Shown here in pieces: positions 9,398 to 59,853 of a stretch of 64,000 bases of DNA. Both the position numbers and the translations under genes were made by a program. The stretch is from the NCBI GenBank assembly GCA_963754875.1, contig CAVWHO010000016.1, forward strand, positions 96,001 to 160,000, in the 5' to 3' direction. This DNA comes from Nitrospirota bacterium (GTDB lineage: Bacteria > Nitrospirota > UBA9217). The notes below the pieces were generated by a model. It did not search any database and was not told where the DNA came from. It saw only the letters and a program-made list of their open reading frames with translations. Positions within the stretch are counted from its first letter, which is position 1, and every line of letters begins with the position of its first letter.

Positions 9398-9751
9398 TTA
9401 TGTTAGATAGCGCAGGTATTTTTTCAGCCTGTCCATTTCATGCCTTGCAAAGCATTCTTCCGCTCCCGCATCGATCAGACTTGCCCGGTCCTCGGTTGCA
9501 GCATGATTCGTGAATATGATAATCCGCGCTGCGGGGTTGTTCCTTTTCATACGTTTGAGCCGATTGAAGTAATCCAGACAGAACATCCGCATATCGAGGA
9601 GAACGGCGATGTCCGTCGCGTTTCCAGGGAAAACGGTCTCGTTGAACGCCCCTTGATCTGCGACATCAACCGAGTGTCCTTCGTCTTCAAGCTCGTATTT
9701 GAGAACACTCGCGAGATTTTTTTCGATGTCTGCAATAAGTATCCGTGCCAT
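9398..9751 (-). CDS. Stand-alone, atypical response regulator receiver domain
   Basis: MARILIADIE...LEDEGHSV...VLLDMRM...IIIFT; the conserved Lys of the KP motif appears replaced (FARHE). Confidence 0.75.
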   Translation of the reverse strand: MARILIADIEKNLASVLKYELEDEGHSVDVADQGAFNETVFPGNATDIAVLLDMRMFCLDYFNRLKRMKRNNPAARIIIFTNHAATEDRASLIDAGAEECFARHEMDRLKKYLRYLT

Positions 9752-9919
9752 AGTTCCTGTTCATTCTTGACGATGCGAGGGAGTATTTTTCAATCTGGCA
9801 TCGCTGCTCTTTTTGTCCAGACTGTTCCGTTCCTCTTTTACAAAGCTTTCCAGTTCCCAATAGAGATGCTTCAGTTTACCGAGTGCTGCAGACAGAGCGC
9901 ATCAAGGTGATGCCGCTCG

Positions 9920-10237
9920 TCAGCCGCCCTTCAATCTATGGAAAAGACAGGCGTACAGCTGGAAGTTCGATCCCTCTTCTTCTCGTACCTTTAAATAAAA
10001 ATCACATTGCTCGCAATGCTCGAACTTCATACCGCACATTCCCTGGACCTTGCCGCTGCACAAGGTGCCCGCGATCATCCAGCAGGCTCTTCCACTGTTT
10101 TTCCCGCCGTGCACGCCATTCAGACGGGTATCCGTCGTTGCCGGGCAAACGCCCGACACGGCGGCGCGTTCACCACCGGGTTCCCTTCCACAACCCTTCA
10201 ATTCCCAGCAATTCAATTTTGTTATGACATCGTCCAC
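9920..10237 (-). CDS. Two-CW domain Cys-rich protein
   Basis: NCWELKGCGREPGG...VCPA...HGGKNSGRACWMIAGTLCSG...CEQCDF. Confidence 0.85.
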   Translation of the reverse strand: MDDVITKLNCWELKGCGREPGGERAAVSGVCPATTDTRLNGVHGGKNSGRACWMIAGTLCSGKVQGMCGMKFEHCEQCDFYLKVREEEGSNFQLYACLFHRLKGG

Positions 10238-10278
10238 GATTTCACCGCGTCCGGAAAAAAGGTCTCCTCTGAGGCTTT

Positions 10279-10641
10279 CTATTTCTTGGGCTTCTCCTGG
10301 GGAGTGGCCGGAGCTATTGATGGAAATTTTTGTTTTTCAAGGCACCGCTCTATCCCGAGACGCGTGACCGAAAAACCCAAGGCTGAGGGTTCTTCTTCCT
10401 GTTTCACTCGTGTCATGAATTCACAGCGCCAGCAATTATGTAATTTCTGCGCATAGGTGCCTTCAATTTTTCCGCCGCACAGGGATCCCGCCACGACCCA
10501 GCATGCCCTTCCTGCGTTCTGGCCGCCGTGGGCGCCGCCCAAGTCCTGAGATGTGGACACCGGGCAGATGCCGAGTTCTTGCGCTTTATGGCCGCCAGGC
10601 TGACGTCCGCAATTCTTGAATTCCCAGCAATTCTTTTTCAT
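10279..10641 (-). CDS. Two-CW domain Cys-rich protein
   Basis: NCWEFKNCGRQPGG...ICPV...HGGQNAGRACWVVAGSLCGG...CWRCEF; GGAGGG RBS. Confidence 0.87.
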   Translation of the reverse strand: MKKNCWEFKNCGRQPGGHKAQELGICPVSTSQDLGGAHGGQNAGRACWVVAGSLCGGKIEGTYAQKLHNCWRCEFMTRVKQEEEPSALGFSVTRLGIERCLEKQKFPSIAPATPQEKPKK

Positions 10642-10794
10642 ACCGTCCCTCCTGTATACCGTTCTCGATAATGCTCATCCCGTATCGCGATGAGGTGGCT
10701 GGTCCCATATTCTGTAAGACATTGCAGCAACCACGGAAAAACGTTTTTCCGTTTCCGACAGATTGACACCGAGGAATGCGCTGCATGAATGTCT

Positions 10795-10810
10795 AGCAAA
10801 AATATTGCCA
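10795..10810 (-). promoter_or_regulatory. Putative sigma54 (-24/-12) promoter for the two-CW/REC operon
   Basis: Minus strand TGGCAATATTTTTGCT = TGGCA-N6-TTGC with exact GG-N10-GC spacing. Confidence 0.65.
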
Positions 10811-11109
10811 TCTCTAACCAATTGTTTTTTAAATTTTTAAGCAGTGAGAGAGCTGAAATGCCGGGCAATTTATCTTGGCATGACGGCAGAATGCCTGATT
10901 GAGAAGATGCGAAGGACAAAAAAATATTCAGGGTTTTACAATCACGGGTCCTGATGTTGACCGCCTCAACCCAGCATCCGTTTTATTCGCTCTTTCTGCT
11001 TCTATTTACACCACGCCTTATCGGGCATTCTGTCTTCCAGATAGGGAGAGATTCCCGACTGTGCAGCGTGCTCGCATCACTATACTATAAAAAATCAGTG
11101 CGTTAGCAA

Positions 11110-11125
11110 TGGCAGCATTTATGCT
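11110..11125 (+). promoter_or_regulatory. Putative sigma54 promoter for the triheme cytochrome
   Basis: TGGCAGCATTTATGCT, GG-N10-GC, immediately upstream of the RBS and ATG 11153. Confidence 0.55.
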
Positions 11126-11152
11126 AGGAGAAGACGGCGGGAGGGAGTGGGC

Positions 11153-11470
11153 ATGAAAAAATATATTTTTATGATCGAGCTTATTTCACTTTTTCTCACA
11201 CCAACGGCATGGTCAAAGATCGGAGGCGGAGATATAACGTTCCTGGTGAAAGATGCGGGGAATGTTGTATACAACCATGATTCCCATGTCGATAAATTGG
11301 GGCTGGGGTGTTCAGCGTGTCACTACGGTATTTTTGCCCGGGCCGCACATAACATCAGGGATAAAGCGACCATGACAGAGATGCAGAATGGGAAGTCTTG
11401 CGGCAGTTGCCATAACGGACGAAGAGCATTCGGGGTAGATAAAAACTGCTCACGCTGCCATCATAAATGA
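11153..11470 (+). CDS. Periplasmic triheme c(7)-type cytochrome
   Basis: Signal-peptide-like N-terminus; V.YNHDSH plus CSACH, CGSCH(NG..AF) and CSRCH. Confidence 0.9.
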   Translation: MKKYIFMIELISLFLTPTAWSKIGGGDITFLVKDAGNVVYNHDSHVDKLGLGCSACHYGIFARAAHNIRDKATMTEMQNGKSCGSCHNGRRAFGVDKNCSRCHHK

Positions 11471-11693
11471 CAACGTGTCAGCAGGAAAGTAACATCCGTA
11501 ATTCCCTGTAGACGGAGCGGCGGAGCTGCATTTCTCACCGAGGGGACACATGACCCTGTGAAGTGAGCGTTGCGACGTGAGGCGGTATTCGGGAAAATAA
11601 ATTTTTGCTAGAATGTCGGCAGGTGCGTCAAGCATAAAAAAGCCAGTTCTGCACTTTGCAAATCTTACCTCTTAAGTTGAAAGATCATGATAC

Positions 11694-14369
11694 ATGGAAA
11701 AAATTAAAAGAATAACCATCTCGGGCAAGCGGTATGATTTTTATCTGTTGTCGGCATGGACCGCGGTAATTGCTTTTGCTTTTATTTTTTCTGCTTATTA
11801 TTATCATCAAAACATGCTCGGCCAGGCCGCAATCGAAGCGCGAACACACTTGGATCTGGATATGGAATACAGGTCTTTTATAACAACATTAGGAGGTGTG
11901 TATGTTCCCGCTTCGGTTGTTCGCCCGAATCCATTCCTCGTTGCCCGGAATAAAAATATCACGACAACCGAGGGAAATAAACTGACGCTTGTTAACTCGG
12001 CATATATGACGAGATTGTTATTCGACACAGACAATACAAGTACGGGACAGCCCGCTATCAGCAAAATTACCAGTTTAAAGCCCATTAATCCGGGCAACAA
12101 GCCGGACGCCTGGGAAAGGGACGCCTTGCTCTCCTTCGAGAAAGGTCGACAGGAGGCCCGTGAAGTCAAAACAATAAATGGAGAACCCTTTTTGAGACTC
12201 ATGCGACCGCTCGTCACCGAAAGAAGATGCCTCATGTGTCATGCATACCAGGGGTATAAGGACGGAGATATCCGCGGCGGCATCAGCGTGGCCGTTCCGT
12301 TAAAACAGTATCTGAAAACAGAATCAAGAACAAGAAGCAAATTATTTATTATCGATATTTTCGTTTGGCTTATCGGATGCGCAGGGATCGTCGGCTTTTC
12401 CAGGGTCAGGCAAGAACAGGAAAAAGATCTTGTGGAAAGCGAATGGAAGTTCAGGACTGTATCAGAATCAACTCATGACTGGGAGTATTGGGCTGCTGAA
12501 GATGGGTCAATAGCATATATGTCCCCTTCCAGCACGATCATCACCGGTTACAGCCCCGAGGAGTTCTTAACGAAGCCCGACCTTCTCATGGAAATCATGC
12601 ATGATGAAGACAGAGCTACCTTTAGTTGTCACTTGAGTGATGTGAGGGCCAAGCAACACCGGGAAATAGAAATCAGAATTATCACAAAGGACGGCCATCT
12701 GAAATGGATTGCTCATTCATGTTCTCCTCTCTATAAGAAGGAAAGATTCCTCGGAAGGCGTGTAAACAACAGGGACATTACCGAACGCAAACAGGCCGAG
12801 GAGGCCCTGATCGAACAGGAGGGGTTTTCAGCAAATCTTATCGGGCACTCGGCAACGGCAACTTTCGTTTTGGATAAAAACCACAAGATCATGCTCTGGA
12901 ATAGGGCATGCGAAGAACTTACCGGGCTTCGTGAATCCCAGATGATAGATACCGATGACCAGTGGAAACCCTTCTACAGCTACAAGAGGCCCACCATCGC
13001 AGATTTCATTATTGACAACGATTTCGAAGAGCTTTTTAAATATTATGACAATTATACAAAATCACCACTCCTCCCCCAGGGAATCAAGGCCGAAGGCTGG
13101 TATCGAGATCTCGGTGGCAAGGACAGATACATCATCTTTGAGGCGTCTCCGATACATAGCAGCAAAGGAAAGCTGATAGCCGCGATTGAGACACTGCAGG
13201 ATATAACGGAAAACAAAAAACTTGAGGAACAACTTCTTCAGTCCCAGAAGCTAGACGCCATCGGTAAACTCGCTGGCGGCGTGGCCCACGACTTTAATAA
13301 TATACTGACCGCTATCATGGGGTTTTCTCATCTCACGCTTTCGAAACTGCCTGAAGACGATCCGTTGAGAGGCAACATGGATCAAATTCTCCTCGCGTCG
13401 AACCGGGCAGTCGAGCTTACCCAGGGTCTTCTTTCTTTCAGCAGGAAACGTATTATGAACCCTGCGCCGCACAGCCTGACTGACATTGTCGTGAAACTGA
13501 AAAAATTTTTGCTGCGGTTGATCAGGGAGGACATACAGCTGCTTATTACGCTGTCGGAGGAGGAACTGACTGTTTTCGTTGACAGCGGCCAGATTGAGCA
13601 GGTGCTGATGAACCTCGTTACAAATGCAAGAGATGCCCTGCCGACGGGTGGGCAAATAGCTATCCGAACTGAGTCTGCATACTTGGATGAGTCCTTTGCC
13701 GAGACGCATGGGTATGGGGAGGCGGGCAGATATGCCGTTCTCATTGTTTCTGATACAGGCAAGGGAATGGATGCAAAAACGAGAGATAGGATATTCGAGC
13801 CTTTTTTTACAACAAAAGAACAGGGGAAAGGGACAGGTCTCGGCCTCGCAGTAGTATACGGCATCATCAAGCAGCATAATGGATTTATCAACGTCTATAG
13901 CGAGCCGGGGAAAGGTACGTCGTTTAAAATCTATCTGCCTCAATTGAGAGGGAGCCACAAGGTAGAGCAAAGAGAGGTGCAATCCAGCACAATACAAGGC
14001 GGCTCAGAGACGGTACTCATAGCCGAGGACGACGCAGTGTTGAGGGAACTATCGTCCACAATACTGCGCAATCACGGATACCACGTGATCGAGGCGGTTG
14101 ACGGCGAAGACGTAGTGGTCAAATTCAACGAAAACAAGGGTCGCGTGAAATTGATTATCTTCGACGTCATTATGCCGAAGAAGAACGGTTTAGAAGCGTA
14201 TCAGGATATTCGGAGGATAGACCAAGCGGTGAAAGCAATTTTCGTCAGTGGTTATGCGGAAGACTTAATGAATAAAGAAGGTCTGCTTGAGCCCGGCATC
14301 AATTTCATTTCTAAACCCATTATCCCATCAACGTTGTTGCAGAATGTGAGAAAAGTGTTGACTTCGTAA
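11694..14369 (+). CDS. Hybrid sensor histidine kinase: periplasmic heme-c (DUF3365-like) sensor, 2 PAS, HisKA, HATPase, REC
   Basis: TSLKPINPGNKPDAWE...CLMCH between two TMs; LAGGVAHDFNN, NLVTNARDA, PFFTTK..GKGTGLGL, C-terminal receiver. Confidence 0.93.
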   Translation: MEKIKRITISGKRYDFYLLSAWTAVIAFAFIFSAYYYHQNMLGQAAIEARTHLDLDMEYRSFITTLGGVYVPASVVRPNPFLVARNKNITTTEGNKLTLVNSAYMTRLLFDTDNTSTGQPAISKITSLKPINPGNKPDAWERDALLSFEKGRQEAREVKTINGEPFLRLMRPLVTERRCLMCHAYQGYKDGDIRGGISVAVPLKQYLKTESRTRSKLFIIDIFVWLIGCAGIVGFSRVRQEQEKDLVESEWKFRTVSESTHDWEYWAAEDGSIAYMSPSSTIITGYSPEEFLTKPDLLMEIMHDEDRATFSCHLSDVRAKQHREIEIRIITKDGHLKWIAHSCSPLYKKERFLGRRVNNRDITERKQAEEALIEQEGFSANLIGHSATATFVLDKNHKIMLWNRACEELTGLRESQMIDTDDQWKPFYSYKRPTIADFIIDNDFEELFKYYDNYTKSPLLPQGIKAEGWYRDLGGKDRYIIFEASPIHSSKGKLIAAIETLQDITENKKLEEQLLQSQKLDAIGKLAGGVAHDFNNILTAIMGFSHLTLSKLPEDDPLRGNMDQILLASNRAVELTQGLLSFSRKRIMNPAPHSLTDIVVKLKKFLLRLIREDIQLLITLSEEELTVFVDSGQIEQVLMNLVTNARDALPTGGQIAIRTESAYLDESFAETHGYGEAGRYAVLIVSDTGKGMDAKTRDRIFEPFFTTKEQGKGTGLGLAVVYGIIKQHNGFINVYSEPGKGTSFKIYLPQLRGSHKVEQREVQSSTIQGGSETVLIAEDDAVLRELSSTILRNHGYHVIEAVDGEDVVVKFNENKGRVKLIIFDVIMPKKNGLEAYQDIRRIDQAVKAIFVSGYAEDLMNKEGLLEPGINFISKPIIPSTLLQNVRKVLTS

Positions 14370-14408
14370 GCCGGCAGGCGCCCTTAATAGAGTTACCGTT
14401 GAATAATT

Positions 14409-14424
14409 CGGCAGAGGGATTGCG
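14409..14424 (+). promoter_or_regulatory. Putative sigma54 promoter for the MCP
   Basis: CGGCAGAGGGATTGCG, GG-N10-GC with TTGC, ~57 nt upstream of the MCP start. Confidence 0.5.
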
Positions 14425-14480
14425 ATTCCACGCTTCTCAAACCGAACACTTACTACAGCTGAAAAGCGAGGAGTTGAACC

Positions 14481-16088
14481 GTGATAATGAAAAAAACTAT
14501 TAACGGCAATATGTCATTGTCTTCGAAAATTGGTGCCCCCATTGTTGTCGCTGTATTTATTGGTATTGCCATTTCCGTACTTGTTACTGGCTATACAATG
14601 AAATTAATTGTTATTCAGGAGGTGGAGAAATCGACGCTGGAAACAACGCGAGATACGGTTCTGAATTCCCTTACAACAATGATGGTGAGTAATGATATTC
14701 AAAATTCAAAGAAATTATTCATCGACCAGATGAAGAATATTGTCGATCTGAAAGTAATCAGGTCAGATAAATTAAACGAACAATTTGGCACGGTTGAAAA
14801 AAGTTATACAAAAGATGATATTCAAGCGGAAGTACTCAGCAAAGGAGTAGAGAAAATAGTCCTTGAAGGTGAGTCTATAAGAGGGGTTTATCCCTATATT
14901 GCCAAGCGGAATATTATGGGGAGAAACTGCCTGAGCTGTCACAATGTGCCCGAAGGGACTGTCCTGGCGGCTGTGGACATAACAGTACCCCTCGGCGCCT
15001 CCTATGCGAGAATTAAAAAATTACAGTGGCTATTTGTCCTTTTGGGTCTTGCAGGAATTTTGACGCTCTTGTTTATTGTCCGTTACATAATGAAAGTCAT
15101 GCTGCGGCCCCTCCACGAAGTTATAAGCAAAATAAAGGAAGTTTCAACGGGCGATCTTACCGTACATTTCCCTTATCATAATAATGACGAAATAGGGGTT
15201 CTCTCACGAAACATGGAAACAATGACGCAGTCGATTTCCTTATTAATCACGCGTATTCTGACAACATCCTCAAAAGTTGTTGATTCTGTCGATGCTCTTC
15301 AGCAAAGCGGAGACCGTCTGTTTACTAGCGCTAAAAACCAAGCCGTGCAGGCTCAACATATTGCGTCAGCGTCGGAAGAGATGAGCCTGACGATCGGAGA
15401 CATAGCAAAAAATTCTTCCGTAGCGGCATCAATTACTTCAAACGCCATGAACATGGCGAACGGAGGAAAATCTGTCGCCGAAGGGGCCGTGCAAATAATC
15501 ACTAATGTGGATGCCTGCAGTGCTGAGTTGCAGCACCTCATTAATGATTTGAATGAAAGCGCTATGGATATAGGCAACATTGTAACTATTATCAATGGAA
15601 TTGCCGATCAGACCAATTTGCTTGCGTTAAATGCATCGGTCGAAGCAGCGCATGCCGGCGATAAGGGCCGTGGTTTTGCTGTTGTTGCTGATGAAGTCCG
15701 CAAATTGGCCGAAAAAACGATTAATGCTACAATAGAAATATCCAGCAAAACAAAAGCAGTACAGCAAAAAACAAACCAAGCTACTATATCGATGGAAAGT
15801 TCCTCGAAGGAAGTAAGTAAAGCCACTACACATATGAAGAGCGTGGGAGAACAATTACACCACATCGTGGATGCTGTTCAAAAAGCCAAGGACGAAATAA
15901 TATCCATTGCTACAGCTGTTGAGGAACAGTCCTCGGTTGCCGAGAATGTCACGAAAAACATAGCAATAACATCTAATACCGCTCAAAGCATGGAAGATCT
16001 GGCAAACAATATTTCACATCAGGTTAATGCTTTAACCAAAGTAGTTACCGAGATGAGAGAATATTCCTCTGAGTTCAAAACTGCCTAA
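14481..16088 (+). CDS. Methyl-accepting chemotaxis protein with periplasmic CxxCH heme-c sensor
   Basis: TM-periplasmic(NCLSCHNV)-[18 protein letters not shown]...[16 protein letters not shown]. Confidence 0.93.
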
Positions 16089-16134
16089 GGCGAACTGATA
16101 ATGTTGGACCGCTGAAACAGATCACCGTTAGAGG

Positions 16135-18964
16135 TCACTGTCGCGGCAGCGTGATGGAAAAGGTCGTTCCCCTCCCCAATTCGGTCGTAACGCGGATATC
16201 GCCATGATGGTCAACAAGTATTTTTTTTGTAATCGCAAGTCCGAGGCCGGTCCCCCCGTTGGCAGCTTTCGTCGTATAGAAGGGGTCAAAGATCCTATTG
16301 ATCTGCTCCGGCAATATGCCGCCTCCCGTATCGCTGATCCTGATGTTGACCGCCTCCTCCTCAGCAACCGTCTCGATGGCCAAGGCGCCTTTGTCGTCCA
16401 TGGCGTCGAGGCCGTTTGTAATCACCGTGAGAAAGACCTGCCTCAGTTCCCCTTCGTTCCCATAGACGGTAAGGTTCCCTTGTGTATAGCCTCTCACCAC
16501 CTCGACTTCTTTTAATCTGCCTTGAAGGCTGATGACCTCCAGTGTCCTGTCGATCATCTCATGGACATCGATCGTCTTTTTGTCCGGCGAGCCTTTCCGT
16601 ACGAACGAAAGCATGCCTGTGGTTATATTTTTGCACCGCGCAATCTCTTCTTCGATGATCTCCAGATATTTCTTGAACAGCGCCGGCTCAAAGTGTCCCT
16701 GGTTAACCCGGTTCAAGAGACCTTCCGCACATCCCCTGATCGCGGCCAACGGGTTGTTGATCTCATGGGCGATGCTCGCCGCCATCTGTCCGAGAGATGC
16801 CAACCGCTCGTTCATGATGAACCGCATCTCTCGTTCCCGTTCCTGCGTCACGTCTCTTACGATATTGATGGTCCCGCCGGGGGCCCCATCGGGGTTCAGG
16901 TAAGGAAAGTGCGTGGTCACCAACGTTCTTTTATTTATCGGGTCCACCTGTTGGACATCAGCCGCGATGCCTGTTTCCTGTATCCTATGGTGCGGACAAT
17001 CAGTATAGGGATCACGTGATTCGTGGACCAGTTCGTAGCATTTCTGATTGAGAATTGACGAAAAGCTCTTCCCAACATACGCAGCAAAGGCCTTGTTCGC
17101 CTTGATAATCCTGTATTCCCTGTCGGTGATGCAGATGGGGTCCTGGATATTATCGAAAGTATCACTCCATTCTTTCTCGGAACGGCTGACCTGAGCGACC
17201 AGATACTGAAGCTCCATGACGAACTTCTCCCGTTCCATCTCCATCCGCTTTCGCTGTGAAATATCGACCACCGCGATCCGGATCTGACCTGCCTTATCGT
17301 CGACATTATCGGCGATCGTACTCTGGAGTTGGGCGTAAAATGCCGGGGCATTTCTCGGTACTATCCTCAACTCGCAGGTCTGTAATGCTTGGCTCCTGAA
17401 TGTTTCCTTACGATGGCCTTCGTAAACTGCAAGATCGCCCTTTTCGATAAAAGGGGTAAAAGATTCCCCTATCAACAGATGCCTGGTTACGCCCACCATA
17501 TTGGCCCCGGTAAGATTCGCTTCCCGGATCCGACCGCTTGCATCAATCAAGAAATACCCGAACCGGAGAGAAATCAAAGAGGTCCCTATATCTGGCGCGG
17601 GAGGATTCAAGCTCCACCCGCGCGCGGTGCAACGTTTTTTCCGCCTGTTTGCGCTCAGAGATATCGCGTACGATCGCCACCATGTATCGCTTCCCCCCCT
17701 CGGCAACAGGCATGACGTTGATTTCAACGGGGAAGACACTGCCGTCTTTTCGCCGATGCAAACTCTCGATCATAAACGATCGACGCTTGAGGACGTCTTC
17801 GCACCTTTGTTTCCATGAGTGATCGTCCGGAATATTTAGGTCGAAGTCCCTTACCGACAAAGACAGCACTTCCGGGCGGGTGTAACCATACCTCTCGCAG
17901 ACTTTCTCGTTGCAGTCCGAAAAACGGCCGGTTTCGTGATCAGTTACGAATATGCAATCGTTTGACCGGTCGATAAGCGCGCGAAACAGCCTCAGGTCCT
18001 TCTCAGCCTGCTTCCGGCTGGTAATGTCCCTCGCTACTTCAACAGCCGCGACGACCTCCCCCGACACATCGCGCACCGGAGATGCAATAAGTTCGTACGT
18101 TACTTCGCCCCGTTGTTCGATCAGGCCAGTTCGCTCCACGATATGGCGCTTCCCATCCTGGAAGGACAGCACAAGGGGGCAATCTTCACAGACAGCGTCC
18201 TTCTTCCGGTACGCCTTGTAGCAATACTCGCCGACATGGTCTCCGCCGACAAGTTCCCTGTGGAGCCGATTCTGATAAATGACCCTGAAATCCCTGCCCT
18301 GCATGCTGACGCCATCGGCTATAGCCACTATGATAGCCTCGGACTTGTTTTTTTCTTCTACGGTTTTTGCCAGCGCCCGACGCAACGTTTCTTCCGCCTG
18401 TTTGCGCTCGGAGATGTCCACAACGGCAATTCGGATCAGACCGTTCGCCTTGCCATCCTGTTCGACAGCCAAGCAGTGCAACTGAGCAAAAAACGGGGAA
18501 CCGCTCTTTCTTTTGAGTTTAACTTCGCAAGGTTGCTGGTACTTCTTCTCGATGACTTCGGCAAAATGAGAGAGGAACACCCGCTGTTCTTTCCTGTCCG
18601 CGAGAAAAACGGAGAAGGGTCCGTTGATCACTTGCAGCCGGTTGACGCCGAGCAGGGTCGCACAGGCGAGGTTAATTTCCTTGATCGCGCCGCGGGCATC
18701 GAGCGCAAGATAGCCGACAGGCGCAAAATCGTACAAATCGGCCAACTTGTCGCGGGACGATTCCAGTGCCTCCCTCGTACGTCTGAGCTCTTCGTTCTGC
18801 ATTTCGAGCTCGATCTGGTGAGTTCCGAGCTCATTGACGAGCTGTTTTAAATCATAGGTCGTGAGCTTGCTCAAGCCTTTCGTCTGTTCACCGAGCTTTT
18901 TCTTCGCCTTCCGTCGAAGGGCGGCGAGGGTTTCCGATTTTGAACTGGATTTTTTCGTAGGCAT
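16135..18964 (-). CDS. Multi-PAS cytoplasmic sensor histidine kinase (NtrB-like), split by one frameshift near 17562
   Basis: ELGTHQIELEMQNEELRR, LYDFAPVGY PAS repeats; FDFSPV|GYFLID continues in the 16135-17739 frame; IAHEINNPL, PFYTTK..GGTGLGL; ATG at 18964. Confidence 0.88.
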
Positions 18965-18980
18965 TCTTCTCACCGAATCC

Positions 18981-20297
18981 TCATTCTTCCACCCCGTAGC
19001 TTGCCAGCTTCCGGTACAAGGTCTTCGGGTCAATGCCGAGCAGTTCCGCCGCCTTGCCCCGCTGTCCTGCCGATGCGTCGAGGACGCGCAGGATGTGCTC
19101 CCTCTCGACGTCTTCGAGCCGCGTGGAGGCTGCCTTCGGGCCCGTGACAAGATCGAGAGGGAGGTCGTAGGGTTCAATCACATCGCTGCGCGACAGGAGG
19201 AGCGTCCGGTGCACGACGTTCTGCAGTTCCCGCACGTTTCCGGGCCACGGGTATGCTGTGAGGACGCGGAGCGCCGACTCGCTGAACCGCTTTTGCTTGA
19301 AAGCGGCGTCACGCTTCGTAAAGTAATCGATCAACGCCCGGATGTCCTCCTTGCGCTCCCGCAAGGGCGCAATCGGCACGGTGAGCGCCGTGACCCGGTA
19401 ATACAGGTCTTGCCTGAAGGCCCCTTTCCGGATTTCTTCCTTAAGGTCCTTGTTCGAAGCAGCAAGTATCCTGATGTCCACCTTCTGCTCACGGGTGCCG
19501 CCGAGCCTGAAGAAACTCCCAGTTTCAATGACCCGGAGCAGCTTTATCTGGAGCGCAAGGGGCATGTCACCGATCTCATCGAGGAAGAGCGTCCCGCTGT
19601 TCGCGACTTCCAGGAGTCCGGGTTTTCGTGCTGAAGCGCCGGTAAATGCACCTTTTTCAAAACCGAACAATTCGCTCTCGATCATGTTCTCGGGAATCGC
19701 CCCGCAGTTGATCGGGACAAAGGGACCGCCGGCGCGCTTCGACTCCCGGTGGATGCTCGCTGCAATCAGTTCTTTGCCCACGCCGCTCTCGCCGGTAATG
19801 AGCACGGGGAAATCGGATTGAGCGACCTTTTTCGCGGTCTCCTGCAATTCCTGCATTACGCGACTCGCGGCAATAAGGTGTTTCCGTTCCGTCTGCCGCT
19901 GAATTTGCGTTTTTAAAAGAATATTCTCGCTGCGGAGCTTCTTTTTTTCGTAGGCTTTATCGATGATCGGTCCAAGTTCTTCCAGGCGGAATGGCTTCGA
20001 CAGGTAATCATAGGCCCCGAGTTTCATGGCCTCGACGGCAGTCGATATGGTTGCGTTCGCTGTCAGCACGATCACTTCGGTGGGAATATCGAGAGACTTT
20101 ATTTTTTTTAGGACATCGATGCCCACGAGTCCGGGCATGTTCAGATCGAGAAGGAGAACATCATATTCGTCCTGATCGAGCAGTTCCAGAGCCCGCCGTC
20201 CGTTTTCCACCTCATCTACATGAGTGTGATCGTTCGAAAGCTCCGTACGCAACACCTGCCTGATGTTCTTTTCATCGTCGGCAACGAGCAGTTTCAT
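18981..20297 (-). CDS. Sigma54-dependent response regulator (REC-AAA+-Fis HTH, NtrC family)
   Basis: LLLDLNMP receiver; GESGVGKE, ESELFG, GAFTGA, LFLDEIG, WPGNVREL, LGIDPKTLYRKL. Confidence 0.96.
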   Translation of the reverse strand: MKLLVADDEKNIRQVLRTELSNDHTHVDEVENGRRALELLDQDEYDVLLLDLNMPGLVGIDVLKKIKSLDIPTEVIVLTANATISTAVEAMKLGAYDYLSKPFRLEELGPIIDKAYEKKKLRSENILLKTQIQRQTERKHLIAASRVMQELQETAKKVAQSDFPVLITGESGVGKELIAASIHRESKRAGGPFVPINCGAIPENMIESELFGFEKGAFTGASARKPGLLEVANSGTLFLDEIGDMPLALQIKLLRVIETGSFFRLGGTREQKVDIRILAASNKDLKEEIRKGAFRQDLYYRVTALTVPIAPLRERKEDIRALIDYFTKRDAAFKQKRFSESALRVLTAYPWPGNVRELQNVVHRTLLLSRSDVIEPYDLPLDLVTGPKAASTRLEDVEREHILRVLDASAGQRGKAAELLGIDPKTLYRKLASYGVEE

Positions 20298-21711: not shown

Positions 21712-22929
21712 TCATTGCAGCACCACGTTGAACTCCAATTCCTTGTTTCCCAGCAGAAAAGGCTTCCGCATCACCTTCACCTTGATGGTTTCACCATGGT
21801 GTTTATAAAAAAGCACGATCTTGAGATCGTCAATCGTTCTGACCGGCGAGCCGTCAACGTCCAGGAGGACATCACCGGACCTGAGACCCGCCTTTCGGGA
21901 AACGCTGTCCGCGGGAAAATCCGTAATCAGGACCTTGACGCCCTCCTCCTTGAGCATGACCATCAGTTTGGGTGCAGTCACGCCCTCCTCCTCCTCGGAG
22001 AATATCAGGTAGTCGGCGATGCCCCGGTCCACATCAGCATCGTTCAGGATGGTCACATACTCATAGCCATTGCGCCGGAAAGCCCGTTTAGGAATTCCCG
22101 AGCCGTAGGCAAGGTGTCCCGATCCCGCAACCACGATCATTTGGCGCAAGGGGTTCTTCCGCAGATACTCATCAAGGGACATTGCCATGGTCTCGTCCCA
22201 GAGCACCTGTGCTTCATAAAAAAAATCGAAATTCATTTCTTCGCGGTTTTTATGCTCCGCGAAGGCTTGTTTCAACCGGTCGCGGTAGTCGTTATCGGAG
22301 AGGTCCAACTGCGAGGGGATATCCTTTTTTTCTTCGACGGAGAGGGAAGCGACGCCGCCCTTCGCCACTTTATCGATGATTTCCCTCTTCGCGTTCAAGG
22401 CAACGACCGGGATCTTCTCGGCCCGGGCGAAGTCGAGGATCGGCTTGTACAAATTGAAGTCAAAAACCCATCGCGAAAAATATTCCGTCTTCTTGAGGAA
22501 CTCCCGCTCCCCGATTGCCCCGCCGATATAGTCATCCAGCACCTGTTGGAAAGGTCGCTGAAACATCTCCATGCCGATGGCGATCCTTGGGTTCTTTTTG
22601 AACAGTCCCTTGATGACCTGCAGCTCGACGGTATGGTTGCTGAAGCGGTCGTGATATTCCCCCACGTAAACGATCTTTTTACTTGCAACCTGTTCAATGA
22701 CGCGGGAAAGCGTCTTGAGGTCCGCCATGTCGATGGCCACGGGCTCCGTTCCCTGTTCCATAGTCTTTTTCTTCTCCGATCCGGGTTTTTTTTGTGAGAT
22801 CGCTTCCTGCGAGCCAGCTGGCGAAGAGCCGGCTTCACTGGAAGACGCGATGCAATCCCTTGTCCTTGAGGACAGAAGGAGGAGAGTGGCAAAAATAACA
22901 ATCCCGATACTAACATATTGTTTTTTCAT
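21712..22929 (-). CDS. ChaN-family (heme-binding uptake) protein with C-terminal PDZ domain
   Basis: IVYVGEYHD, IGMEMF, AQVLWDETMA, VAGSGH; PDZ SRKAGLRSGDVLLDVDG. Confidence 0.85.
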   Translation of the reverse strand: MKKQYVSIGIVIFATLLLLSSRTRDCIASSSEAGSSPAGSQEAISQKKPGSEKKKTMEQGTEPVAIDMADLKTLSRVIEQVASKKIVYVGEYHDRFSNHTVELQVIKGLFKKNPRIAIGMEMFQRPFQQVLDDYIGGAIGEREFLKKTEYFSRWVFDFNLYKPILDFARAEKIPVVALNAKREIIDKVAKGGVASLSVEEKKDIPSQLDLSDNDYRDRLKQAFAEHKNREEMNFDFFYEAQVLWDETMAMSLDEYLRKNPLRQMIVVAGSGHLAYGSGIPKRAFRRNGYEYVTILNDADVDRGIADYLIFSEEEEGVTAPKLMVMLKEEGVKVLITDFPADSVSRKAGLRSGDVLLDVDGSPVRTIDDLKIVLFYKHHGETIKVKVMRKPFLLGNKELEFNVVLQ

Positions 22930-54421: not shown

Positions 54422-56023
54422 TTAGCTCCTGACAGTTTTAATATCAGCTGTGGCTTTGCCCAGCTCCACGGCGATATCCGAAAGATGCCACACTTCGCTA
54501 GTAACGTTGTCTGCCATTTTCTCCATGTCCCGTGAAATGCTTGAGGTGGATTCAATATTTTTCGCTATTTCCGCTGCCGTTGCCGACTGCTGCTCGACTG
54601 CCGTCGCAATCTGATTAATCTGGTCCTTCACCTTCGTGATCGACTCCGTGATGGTCTTGAGAACATTATTCAAGTTCTTGATATGCCCTGCGGCCTTCGT
54701 AACTCCCTTTGCAGATGCCGCCATCGAGGCCGCGGTCTGGCTGGACTCTGACTGGATCGCGCCGATTTCCGTCGAAATCTCCGCGGTCGCCTGAATGGTT
54801 CTTTCTGCCAATTTTCTTATCTCGTCAGCCACGACGGCAAACCCGACTCCCTGTTCTCCGGCCCGTGCAGCCTCTATTGCAGCATTCAAGGCAAGGAGAT
54901 TCGTTTGATCCGCGATACCCTTGATGACCGTCACGATGTTTCCGATCTCCGACGCCCTTTTGTTCAGCTTTTCGATCGTATTTGACAACTCCTGTGTCGA
55001 ACCGTTGAGTTCATTGATCGTATCCACGGAGATATTCGTTATCTGTTTCGCGTTCTCCGCTATTTCCATGGCATCCTTTGAGGTGTCGGCGGATTCACCG
55101 GCGTTTTTTGCTATGTCCGCGATGGTCTGGTTCATCTCCTCGGCAGCCACCGCGATCATGTGCGCCTGACCCGCCTGTTTTTTCGACCCTTCCGAGGTGG
55201 TTTCGGCGTGGCCTCTGACGATATCTACCGCGGGCATTATTTTGGCGGAAGCCTGAATAATAGTATTAAGCATGCGCGAAAAATGTTTGATGACCATGTC
55301 CACATTCTGCGACATTTGGGCTATTTCGTCTTTGCCTTCCCGGAAGAGCGAGGTATCGGTATATCCTTCCCCAACTCGCCTCACCTTTGCGATCAAGTCC
55401 TTCATGGGAGAATGGGTCAGGTGGACGAGACTCAGGACAATGATCGTCATAGCGATGATGCCGCATAGTCCAAGTACGCCGTAAAGAAATTGCATCGCCC
55501 GTATCCTGCCAAAGGATTCCCTGAGCGGCACTTTGATGCTGATGGCCCCTAGAACCGTTCCTTCCTTCACATTGTGGCAGGACAGACAGTTCTTGCCCAT
55601 AAATTTTTCTTTAGCGATATAGGGATATACCCCCCGGATGGAATCTCCTTCCATGATAATCCGTTCCACTCCTTTTTCGATAACCTCCCGGTCCAGGGCA
55701 TCGACGGCATACTCTTCGGCATTCCCTTTCCCAAAATCTCTATCCACGCTTTCCGACCGGATGACCCTCAAATCAACAATGGTCCGCATCTGTTCCAGGA
55801 AGGGCCCTTTGGTTTCCTTGATGTTGTTTGCCAGCATCATAGTCGTGAGGGTATTCAGGATAGTATCCCTGTATCCCGAAAGCGTCGAACGCTCTACCTC
55901 GTGAAGGACAATGGACTCTGTTTTATACCCCGTAACCACAGTTATAATAACTACCCCCAAGGTAATAAAAAAGAGGATCGGTGCGGCAAGCTTCCATTTT
56001 ATTGAGATATCCCTAATTTTCAT
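54422..56023 (-). CDS. Methyl-accepting chemotaxis protein with periplasmic CxxCH heme-c sensor (paralog of 14481-16088)
   Basis: [10 protein letters not shown]...[13 protein letters not shown] shared with the first [27 protein letters not shown] 56023. Confidence 0.93.
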
Positions 56024-59202: not shown

Positions 59203-59853
59203 TTATTTTTTAAGCTGTGACAAAAGAGGATGGAAGTAATTTTTTATTTGCAGTGTTATCCCCCTGAATATCGTTTTGACAAGAACCTTAGTTGCACGCC
59301 GCCTTTTATCATCTGCGATGGCATCAATTACCCACAGTTCATCAACAAGATCGTCCTTGCATAAGCGTTTACTTGCCTGAAGCATGGATATATTCGGACA
59401 GAAGCTCGTAATTCCAATAAGCATCGATATATAGAAAGAGTCAATCTGCTGGTTATCCTCCGCACTTTTTTTTGCCTTTTCATAAGCGTATTCAAACACT
59501 GTAGGTTCTTTAGCGTTATTATCTATTCGTGCCTCATTAATCTTCTTATAAAGGACAGACACCTTCTTGTAATTCTTCTTCTCTTCCTTAACCACAAGCT
59601 CATGAAAATCACATGCCACGCAGTCCCTGAGTTTTAGGGCGTATATACCCCTAGGGGACCCGCCGCAGTAAGTGCCGGCGATCGCCCAACAGGCTCTACC
59701 AGCATTCATCCCGTCGTTAAAACCGTCGACACGTTCATCAACAGCCGCTGGGCAAGGGCCGTGTATTTTTGCTTTTTCCCCTCCGGGCTGCATATCGCAT
59801 TTTTTATATTCCCAGCAATTAAGCTTTGCTTGACCTATCATGATGTTGCTCAT
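59203..59853 (-). CDS. Two-CW domain protein with C-terminal extension
   Basis: NCWEYKKCDMQPGG...PCPA...NAGRACWAIAGTYCGG...CVACDF plus ~120 extra aa. Confidence 0.85.
   Translation of the reverse strand: MSNIMIGQAKLNCWEYKKCDMQPGGEKAKIHGPCPAAVDERVDGFNDGMNAGRACWAIAGTYCGGSPRGIYALKLRDCVACDFHELVVKEEKKNYKKVSVLYKKINEARIDNNAKEPTVFEYAYEKAKKSAEDNQQIDSFYISMLIGITSFCPNISMLQASKRLCKDDLVDELWVIDAIADDKRRRATKVLVKTIFRGITLQIKNYFHPLLSQLKK

Follow-up and report, generated by a model that had tools for sequence, protein, structure and literature searches.

Between positions 9398 and 20297 of the analysed window, a 64-kb stretch (64,000 nucleotides) of a contig from a Nitrospirota bacterium, lie nine genes that form a candidate sigma-54-controlled locus (Table 1). 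Both candidate promoters are held by a 506-bp intergenic gap (10642-11146). To its left are the genes of two cysteine-rich two-CW proteins, which are distinguished here as types a and b, and of a divergent single-domain receiver. To its right follow the genes of a triheme cytochrome c7, of a hybrid histidine kinase and of a chemoreceptor, the latter two with a CxxCH motif in their periplasmic part, and then, on the opposite strand, those of a multi-PAS histidine kinase and of an activator of the NtrC family. The original prediction for this region, which was made from the DNA letters alone, had described these genes together with two back-to-back -24/-12 motifs. All of them were found in place: the motifs could be read directly, the two-CW proteins and the receiver exceed the cut-offs of their families, the three rightward genes are present as described, and only for the kinase that adjoins the activator a correction is needed, as its gene is split over two reading frames.

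The activator has the receiver, the AAA+ domain with GAFTGA motif and the Fis-type helix-turn-helix (HTH) of an NtrC-family enhancer-binding protein, and the multi-PAS kinase gene begins 16 nt past its stop codon on the same strand. In case of the cytochrome, the likely start is ATG 11153, and the translation contains the three CxxCH motifs CSACH, CGSCH and CSRCH. The sensor of the hybrid kinase matches PF11845 with 64.7 bits (cut-off 24.1) over residues 78-202, and its periplasmic part contains, between two membrane segments, a CLMCH motif at which haem attachment is predicted. The genome assembly is 90% complete, and the check for an absence of rpoN turned up the gene (G000:C10:148297-149736; TIGR02395, 441.5 bits, cut-off 277), in addition to five HU/IHF-family genes and about 30 genes of sigma-54 activators. 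Two small open reading frames on the minus strand (10586-10786 and 10638-10919) were rejected as genes, as they match no family and overlap the promoter, and no RNA family was found between 9000 and 21000 at E <= 0.1. About 1.4 kb beyond the activator gene, a gene for a ChaN-like haem-binding protein with a PDZ domain is located (21712-22929, minus strand).

Table 1. Genes and predicted promoter elements of the locus; positions are those of the window.
Feature	Position	Strand	Matches and remarks
Divergent single-domain receiver, 117 aa	9398-9751	-	PF00072 44 bits (cut-off 30.2), E 2.8e-11; last gene of the leftward operon
two-CW_b (type b, 105 aa)	9920-10237	-	NF045718 106 bits (cut-off 35)
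two-CW_a (type a, 120 aa)	10279-10641	-	NF045718 101 bits (cut-off 35); first gene of the leftward operon
Predicted leftward sigma-54 -24/-12 element	10795-10810	-	TGGCAATATTTTTGCT; score 15.4, best in the 64-kb window
A-rich IHF-like stretch, leftward promoter	10811-10840	-	just upstream of -24; aligned columns conserved across relatives
Palindrome-like putative upstream activator site, leftward promoter	10882-10898		score 13.0, rank 4 in the window; centre 81 nt from GG
Putative tandem upstream activator sites, rightward promoter	11021-11037 and 11042-11058		scores 15.2 (joint top in the window) and 11.0 (about eleventh)
A-rich IHF-like stretch, rightward promoter	11080-11109	+	same columns align in relatives' promoters; within the inverted repeat
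Predicted rightward sigma-54 -24/-12 element	11110-11125	+	TGGCAGCATTTATGCT; score 12.2, rank 6 in the window
Triheme c7-type cytochrome, periplasmic	11147-11470	+	TIGR04257 84.9 bits (cut-off 40); PF14522 62.8 bits (cut-off 24.8)
Hybrid histidine kinase with periplasmic haem-Cache (Tll0287-like) sensor	11694-14369	+	PF11845, two PAS, HisKA, HATPase_c, Response_reg
Weak sigma-54-like motif before the chemoreceptor gene	14409-14424	+	CGGCAGAGGGATTGCG; score 8.3-8.8, chance level
Chemoreceptor with periplasmic haem-c sensor of the GSU0582/GSU0935 kind	14481-16088	+	HAMP and MCPsignal; CLSCH in the periplasmic part
Multi-PAS histidine kinase, cytoplasmic	16135-18964	-	PAS, HisKA, HATPase_c; two frames in the assembly
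NtrC-family sigma-54 activator	18981-20297	-	PF00158 233.7 bits (AAA+, GAFTGA), PF00072 receiver, PF02954 HTH_8

The two predicted promoters are inverted duplicates

All three -24/-12 motifs of the locus have the GG-N10-GC spacing. They were scored with a sigma-54 position matrix whose frequencies approximate those of a published compilation of the sigma-54 consensus, and with this matrix the genome contains 47 sites with a score of at least 15 versus 30 in shuffled sequences, and 244 versus 245 with a score of at least 12. The RpoN scoring that had been proposed along with the original prediction gave 15.4 and 12.2 for the two motifs of the gap. These two are judged to be above chance because of the comparison with relatives, from which their significance comes rather than from the score.

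In relatives with the orthologous activator and kinase, the promoters in front of two-CW genes have a common layout: a pair of palindromic upstream sites with a 21-bp spacing is followed by an A-rich stretch and a TGGCA-N6-TTGC element, and the centres of the sites lie about 84 and 62 nt from the -24 GG (figures of the relative L035). The A-rich stretch presumably resembles the consensus of the integration host factor (IHF). As a simple degenerate pattern for the upstream sites turned out to be unspecific (46 matches, 32.6 expected), it was replaced by a matrix that was built from seven relatives only, with the window left out. This matrix recovers in front of the rightward motif a pair of sites with the same 21-bp spacing and with centres 82 and 61 nt from the GG. 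Both promoters of the window can be aligned collinearly with those of five relatives over the upstream sites, the A-rich stretch and the -24/-12 element. The combination of a sigma-54 motif (score >=10) with an upstream site (score >=11) at a distance of 50-130 nt occurs as only 14 pairs in the 4.3-Mb genome, and both window promoters are among these.

The two promoters resemble not only those of the relatives but also each other. A 38-nt inverted repeat (10793-10830 and 11090-11127) is 76% complementary and spans the A-rich stretch together with the -24/-12 element. When the 141-nt promoter regions were globally aligned in inverted orientation, a score of 13 was obtained, compared to -35 ± 6 for shuffled sequences (z 8.3, reached by 0 of 2000 shuffles) and to -29 for the same-strand control. 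The alignments thus show that the two predicted promoters are inverted duplicates of each other. The rightward copy has both upstream sites and a 27-nt leader to ATG 11153, the corresponding leaders of the relatives being 40-46 nt long.

The regulatory logic of such an arrangement is familiar in kind: a two-component activator acts via upstream sites and an IHF-like stretch on a sigma-54 promoter. Activators of the NtrC/AtoC class drive sigma-54 promoters via tandem upstream sites and a bend caused by IHF, with glnAp2 and nifH as examples. The locus is like these systems with respect to the domains of the activator (receiver, AAA+ with GAFTGA, HTH_8), the adjoining gene of the cognate kinase, and the tandem palindromic sites some 60-85 nt from the -24 element with an A-rich stretch between sites and promoter. 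It is unlike them in three respects: its targets are an uncharacterised two-CW operon and a haem-sensor cluster, its two promoters are inverted duplicates that each have upstream sites of their own, and an inserted divergent cluster parts the activator-kinase pair from its conserved target. The whole promoter, including upstream sites, bend region and -24/-12 element, is duplicated in inverted orientation, and this looks like a recent rewiring by which a newly arrived haem cluster came under an existing regulator.

Some minor observations were made at the promoter region and elsewhere in the genome. The predicted 143-nt leader of two-CW_a contains a perfect 20-bp palindrome (10733-10752, two 10-nt arms without a loop), which could be a protein-binding site, and the leader as a whole does not fold better than shuffled sequences (z -1.27). 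A terminator scan gave no enrichment (11 versus 12.8 expected), and a search for sequencing runs that contain the stretch yielded a DNA run of small share and no RNA run. At G000:C8:419859-420081, two further sigma-54-like motifs stand back to back (scores 12.3 and 17.1) and share an interposed element that resembles the upstream sites.

Orthologous activator-kinase pairs in relatives

The comparison with relatives was based on a scan for two-CW loci in one genome per species, which yielded at least 573 stretches with a relative; the best 80 of these were kept, including up to 10 kb of flanking sequence per side. The activator of the window is over its full length 63-76% identical to activators that are encoded upstream of two-CW operons in L035, L043 and L066. 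The AAA+ part is 62-75% identical in six loci, namely these three and L051, L052 and L070, and in all six the genes of the activator and of a PAS kinase directly precede the two-CW gene on the same strand. The C-terminal half of the multi-PAS kinase is 52-62% identical to the kinases that adjoin the orthologous activators. A sigma-54 motif precedes the two-CW gene in all six loci in which the AAA+ part is at least 60% identical. Among 79 two-CW loci, 10, including these six, have a motif with a score of at least 12 in the 300 nt before the two-CW gene, while none was found on the opposite strand (0/79) and only 1% of 800 random windows reach this score. A general sigma-54 control of two-CW genes can be ruled out, as 69 of the 79 loci have no motif of that score.

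When searched for in 60 genomes of the same family, homologues of the activator split into orthologues with 59-74% identity and paralogues with at most 49%. The upper class comprises 25 loci, five of which are cut by contig ends, so that 20 are informative. Two-CW genes follow downstream of the orthologous activator and kinase in half of these (10/20), chemoreceptor genes are likewise present in 10, and a sigma-54 motif with a score of at least 12.5 follows the kinase gene in the same orientation in 16. This motif lies within 700 nt of the kinase gene in 14 loci, and in the other two (L151 and L152) it lies beyond a divergent hybrid kinase gene, as in the window. These orthologue loci suggest that the conserved regulon consists of accessory signalling genes with two-CW as the commonest first member. 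The idea that the adjacent activator controls the divergent genes is supported by the orthologous pairs in front of two-CW operons and by the conserved promoter layout, and such a control is accordingly predicted also for the window. For this family of activators, operator sites can herewith be predicted in uncultured Nitrospirota, for which almost no regulation has been mapped.

Could the motifs have arisen by chance in an AT-rich intergenic region, with the cluster being no more than a row of sensory genes that are unrelated to each other? By score, the specificity of the matrix is weak, and the genome is rich in sensory genes, with about 30 sigma-54 activators. Chance would nevertheless have to account for the conservation of motif, upstream sites and spacing in five to seven relatives, for the opposite-strand (0/79) and random-window (1%) controls at the same score, and for the rarity of promoter-plus-site pairs in the genome, and we regard this explanation as hardly conceivable.

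The rightward haem cluster

While the activator, the kinase and the two-CW genes recur together, this is not the case for the c7 and haem-Cache genes on the other side of the gap. In tblastn searches of the 80 two-CW loci (E 1e-5), the c7 cytochrome of the window had no match (0/80) and the haem-Cache sensor had one, in L079, where it is part of a GGDEF protein. The signalling domain of the chemoreceptor was matched in 6, the divergent receiver in 4 and the AAA+ part of the activator in 13 of the 80 loci. None of the 11 full-length chemoreceptor genes near two-CW genes of relatives encodes a CxxCH motif, and a regular partnership of two-CW proteins with CxxCH chemoreceptors is not supported by this. 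The conservation of the neighbourhood, which had also been proposed as a check, thus holds for the activator-kinase-two-CW half only, as the c7 cytochrome and the haem-Cache kinase are not regular partners, neither of two-CW genes nor of each other: no c7 gene was detected within 1.5 kb of 29 other haem-Cache sensor loci. Conversely, the 19 best other c7 loci have no adjoining haem-Cache sensor, and none of them has a sigma-54 motif within 300 nt upstream.

The segment 11147-16088 has a G+C content of 45.4%, compared to 53.2% in the genome, and belongs to the lowest 2.5% of 4207 five-kb windows. Homologues of the hybrid kinase sensor are encoded in 41 of the 60 family genomes, the best being 53-55% identical, and within the same genus only weak matches were found, in 3 of 11 genomes. 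The cytochrome is one of at least six c7 matches in the genome. Taken together, the rightward cluster looks like a low-G+C, lineage-specific, local addition to the locus. Among the relatives, the corresponding divergent position is taken in L043 (= L152) and L052 (= L151) by the gene of a hybrid kinase that is 54% identical in its core. These kinases have solute-binding-type sensors and no sigma-54 motif of their own (best opposite-strand scores 7.0 and 6.2), and as other hybrid kinases in the same two loci are equally similar in the core, orthology is not established. The only other pairing of this kind among 69 upstream neighbours of two-CW genes is a divergent multihaem cytochrome in L054 that has a c7-like part according to Pfam. 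As a side observation, another genus of the family has haem-Cache hybrid kinase homologues with a 43% identical sensor whose genes diverge from strong sigma-54 promoters (L122:2451-3351 and L119:2405-3243); the promoter in L122 drives nifH, and the one in L119 drives a 279-aa product that by eye appears to be radical-SAM/NifB-like.

These data bear on the question of whether the rightward promoter is in use. It could be that only the leftward promoter is functional, and that the rightward motif and sites were left behind by an inverted duplication at the time of the cluster's insertion; the cluster would then have other promoters and no tie to the two-CW proteins. The rightward motif has a score at a level that is not enriched genome-wide, sigma-70-like hexamers occur in the region, and neither the divergent hybrid kinases of L043 and L052 nor the other c7 loci have a sigma-54 motif, all of which would fit a leftover. 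On the other hand, it is the rightward copy that has the better pair of upstream sites, conserved in its 21-bp spacing as well as in its distance to the GG, and that keeps the invariant GG and GC as well as a leader of a length like that in relatives. One would not expect a decaying relic to hold all four elements in register, and we consider a leftover to be decidedly improbable. A co-regulation of both halves of the locus is well supported by the comparative data.

As to the proteins of the cluster, triheme cytochromes c7 constitute the PpcA family of Geobacter. The cytochrome of the window is like these with its about 80 mature residues, three CxxCH motifs and an N-terminal signal-like segment, but it is far below the cut-off of the Geobacter c7 equivalog (21.3 versus 120 bits). 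The sensor domain of the hybrid kinase belongs by its PF11845 match and its CxxCH motif with the sCache_haem (DUF3365/Tll0287) sensors, which a preprint describes as enriched in Nitrospirota and, when fused to signalling modules, as having NO-sensor-like properties (PMC12889525). The gene of the window differs from sCache_haem genes elsewhere by following a c7 gene and a sigma-54 promoter, a pairing that was not seen in the 29 other loci.

In case of the chemoreceptor, the known counterparts are the periplasmic haem-c sensors GSU0582 and GSU0935 of Geobacter sulfurreducens and DcrA of Desulfovibrio vulgaris, which a review describes as redox or ligand sensors (PMC8396549). The chemoreceptor of the window shares with them the two transmembrane helices around a periplasmic domain with one CxxCH, followed by HAMP and a signalling domain. 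Its sensor was modelled with a pLDDT of 79, and the predicted fold matches in Foldseek the structures 3B42 (GSU0935; E 2.2e-4, probability 1.00) and 3B47 (GSU0582; E 3.5e-3, probability 0.99). This likeness has its limits, as the sequence identity is only 13-18%, the rmsd is high (14-16 Å), the PF11845 match remains below the cut-off (14.7 bits, E 0.041, cut-off 24.1), and haem binding is predicted; with the sequence of the sensor, nothing below E 0.26 was found among solved structures. The CxxCH is invariant in 28 of 28 homologues of the sensor, 24 of which match PF11845 weakly and below threshold (best E 5.6e-4), and local similarity to the hybrid kinase sensor exists around the CxxCH (pairwise E 0.002). 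The sensor family has seven matches in the genome, one of them 86% identical on another contig; a 51% identical paralogue is encoded within the window at 55424-56008 (minus strand).

The chemoreceptor gene had been credited with a -24/-12 motif of its own. Its place and its GG-N10-GC spacing are as described, but the score is at chance level, being reached about 32 times per 64 kb, and a scan with the relatives-derived matrix found no upstream activator site nearby. In the chemoreceptor family, strong motifs (>=12) are present upstream in only 2 of 30 loci, so that a general sigma-54 dependence of these haem chemoreceptors is ruled out. These two loci (G068 and G012) are exactly the ones that belong to clusters downstream of an orthologous activator-kinase pair, which gives the weak motif of the window some indirect support. 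The upstream regions of the three haem chemoreceptor genes are too diverged for their alignment to be informative. The chemoreceptor gene may be transcribed either from a promoter of its own or by read-through from upstream.

Two-CW proteins and the proposed explanation

Both two-CW proteins cover positions 1-80 of the 80 positions of the NF045718 model with about three times the curated cut-off, and two-CW_a is 76% identical to its orthologue in L035. Seven cysteines, two tryptophans and two arginines are invariant across 55 two-CW sequences. Types a and b are distinct, as the a clade has a support of 100/99 and two-CW_b falls outside of it, and the order a-then-b recurs in seven loci. The domain is present in 52 of 121 sampled genomes of the phylum (41 over the curated cut-off) and in none of 14 model genomes; relatives occur also in Omnitrophota, Methanoregula, Ignavibacteria and other groups, and in a protein atlas two-CW proteins are found only in unnamed clusters, most commonly in Nitrospirota. 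The family carries no functional description, and a full-text literature search on the two-CW domain returned no relevant paper. A confident AlphaFold model (pLDDT 85.6, pTM 0.71) had no convincing counterpart among solved structures (Foldseek best E 3.2; VIA-align best Z 2.1 among 48,161 chains), which is no proof of a new fold, and with the sequence of two-CW_a nothing below E 0.26 was found. The 117-aa protein that is encoded last in the leftward operon belongs by its PF00072 match to the receiver fold family without being a canonical receiver: it has the phospho-acceptor Asp and the Thr, but an Arg takes the place of the conserved Lys, and its acidic pair is degenerate. Of four aligned orthologues, three keep the phospho-acceptor Asp and one has Gly.

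The original prediction had linked haem sensors to two-CW proteins by gene neighbourhood. As a co-occurrence of neighbouring genes, this link did not hold up, but a functional tie is supported by fusions. In two HAMP kinases of the genome, a two-CW domain is fused after HATPase_c, and in a third kinase it is located between PAS and phospho-acceptor domains. One of these kinases (G000:C14:174127-175986) combines two motifs of the haem-binding type in its periplasmic part with a C-terminal two-CW domain. Near-full-length orthologues (57-89% identity) are encoded in 16 of the 60 family genomes, and both haem motifs and the C-terminal two-CW domain were kept in 12 of 12 inspected loci. This conserved fusion is independent evidence for a joint function of the two-CW domain with kinases whose periplasmic sensors are of the haem type. 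Many two-CW matches throughout the phylum lie in open frames of 500-1050 aa. A word-index search for longer, fused relatives of two-CW_a found none, which is weak evidence; the fusions were obtained by family searches of genomes. A second kinase with C-terminal two-CW domain (G000:C5:9657-11425, L146) is split into frames of 376 and 224 aa, which may be due to a frame error or to a broken gene.

What, then, could be the role of two-CW proteins? They could in principle be small metal-handling or redox-buffering proteins, such as cofactor chaperones or stress proteins, for which the sigma-54 control would be incidental and the neighbouring haem sensors unrelated in function. The neighbours of two-CW genes are indeed mixed: across the 80 loci, a SpoU methylase gene is found upstream in 8 cases, FtsZ downstream in 5, SelA/SelB in 6 loci and radical SAM genes in 5. 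Only about 14 of 69 upstream neighbours are signalling genes, c7 and haem-Cache genes are absent from the vicinity of two-CW genes elsewhere, and only three to four stand-alone two-CW paralogues in the genome have any sigma-54-like motif nearby. Such proteins would, however, not be expected to be covalently fused to kinases in three architectures, one of which is kept in more than a quarter of the family genomes, nor would the many matches in long frames be explained. Moreover, the sigma-54-driven two-CW genes of relatives are directly followed by cheW and chemoreceptor genes, by a receiver gene or by a gene for a receiver-HD protein. We therefore regard a function outside of signalling as unlikely.

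The best explanation of the locus as a whole, which we consider probable from the sequence comparisons, is that the adjacent two-component pair activates both duplicated sigma-54 promoters and thereby the two-CW core as well as the added haem cluster. The multi-PAS kinase would sense a cytoplasmic signal through its PAS domains and phosphorylate the activator, which would assemble on the upstream sites and open both promoters. The leftward transcript would comprise two-CW_a, two-CW_b and the divergent receiver as the conserved core of the regulon, and the rightward transcript the c7 cytochrome and probably also the haem-Cache hybrid kinase and the haem chemoreceptor, which may have been recruited to the regulon by the promoter duplication. 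In this way, the cell would deploy a second tier of sensors, with haem-c sensors of redox state or NO in the periplasm and two-CW proteins in the cytoplasm. The latter may be modules that bind a metal or an iron-sulfur cluster and have histidine kinases or chemosensory proteins as their targets. The c7 cytochrome might communicate with the haem sensors, as in the relay of the original prediction, a possibility that is indicated by the adjacency of the genes and by no other feature. A tentative and somewhat unlikely extension is that the two-CW domain represents a new cytoplasmic cysteine-cluster sensor, binding an iron-sulfur cluster or another metal, that plugs into kinases either in cis (as in the conserved kinase with two haem motifs) or in trans (as in the a/b pair). 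Together with periplasmic haem c, it would permit these anaerobes a two-sided redox sensing, and here one activator would deploy both sides from a duplicated promoter. Should two-CW prove to be a cofactor-binding sensor, it would be a new input module for bacterial signal transduction. A handle on this unstudied domain is in any case given by its dedicated regulator, its recurring place beside chemosensory genes and its conserved fusion to kinases with haem motifs.

Several points weigh against the explanation by an activator that serves both promoters. The gene of the multi-PAS kinase changes frame between 17373 and 17552 (homology to the kinases of relatives extends in frame -1 to 17552 and in frame -2 from 17373); this can be either an assembly error or a truly broken gene, and if the frameshift is real, the system may be inactive here. 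A single transcript for the three rightward genes is an assumption, given the gaps of 223 nt between the c7 and the hybrid kinase genes and of 111 nt between the latter and the chemoreceptor gene. The leftward promoter has only one good upstream site and lies 154 nt from the start codon, compared to 40-46 nt in most relatives. Among the 20 informative orthologue loci, 4 have no strong motif after the kinase, and in 7 the promoter is followed by genes for a receiver-HD-like and a CheA-like protein instead of two-CW. The sigma-54 matrix score alone is weak evidence, and the upstream-site matrix is loose genome-wide, with 43 sites at a score of at least 15. The mixed neighbourhood of two-CW genes and the small share of signalling genes among their upstream neighbours belong here as well, and so does the fact that metal binding by two-CW proteins is suggested by the seven invariant cysteines and by no other feature.

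Apart from the locus, two-CW genes were seen in several further contexts. The window contains a third one at 59203-59853 (minus strand), whose 216-aa product has a C-terminal extension of about 120 residues without Pfam match. At G000:C20:116260-117536, a stand-alone two-CW gene adjoins the gene of another sigma-54 activator in convergent orientation, and in L068, L082, L093 and L097 two-CW genes likewise have an activator gene as neighbour. Finally, a subgroup of stand-alone two-CW genes adjoins selenocysteine genes (L084, L085, L094, L097, L105 and L107). Five of these loci have selA and two have selB, and L094 has both, with the two-CW gene between them.

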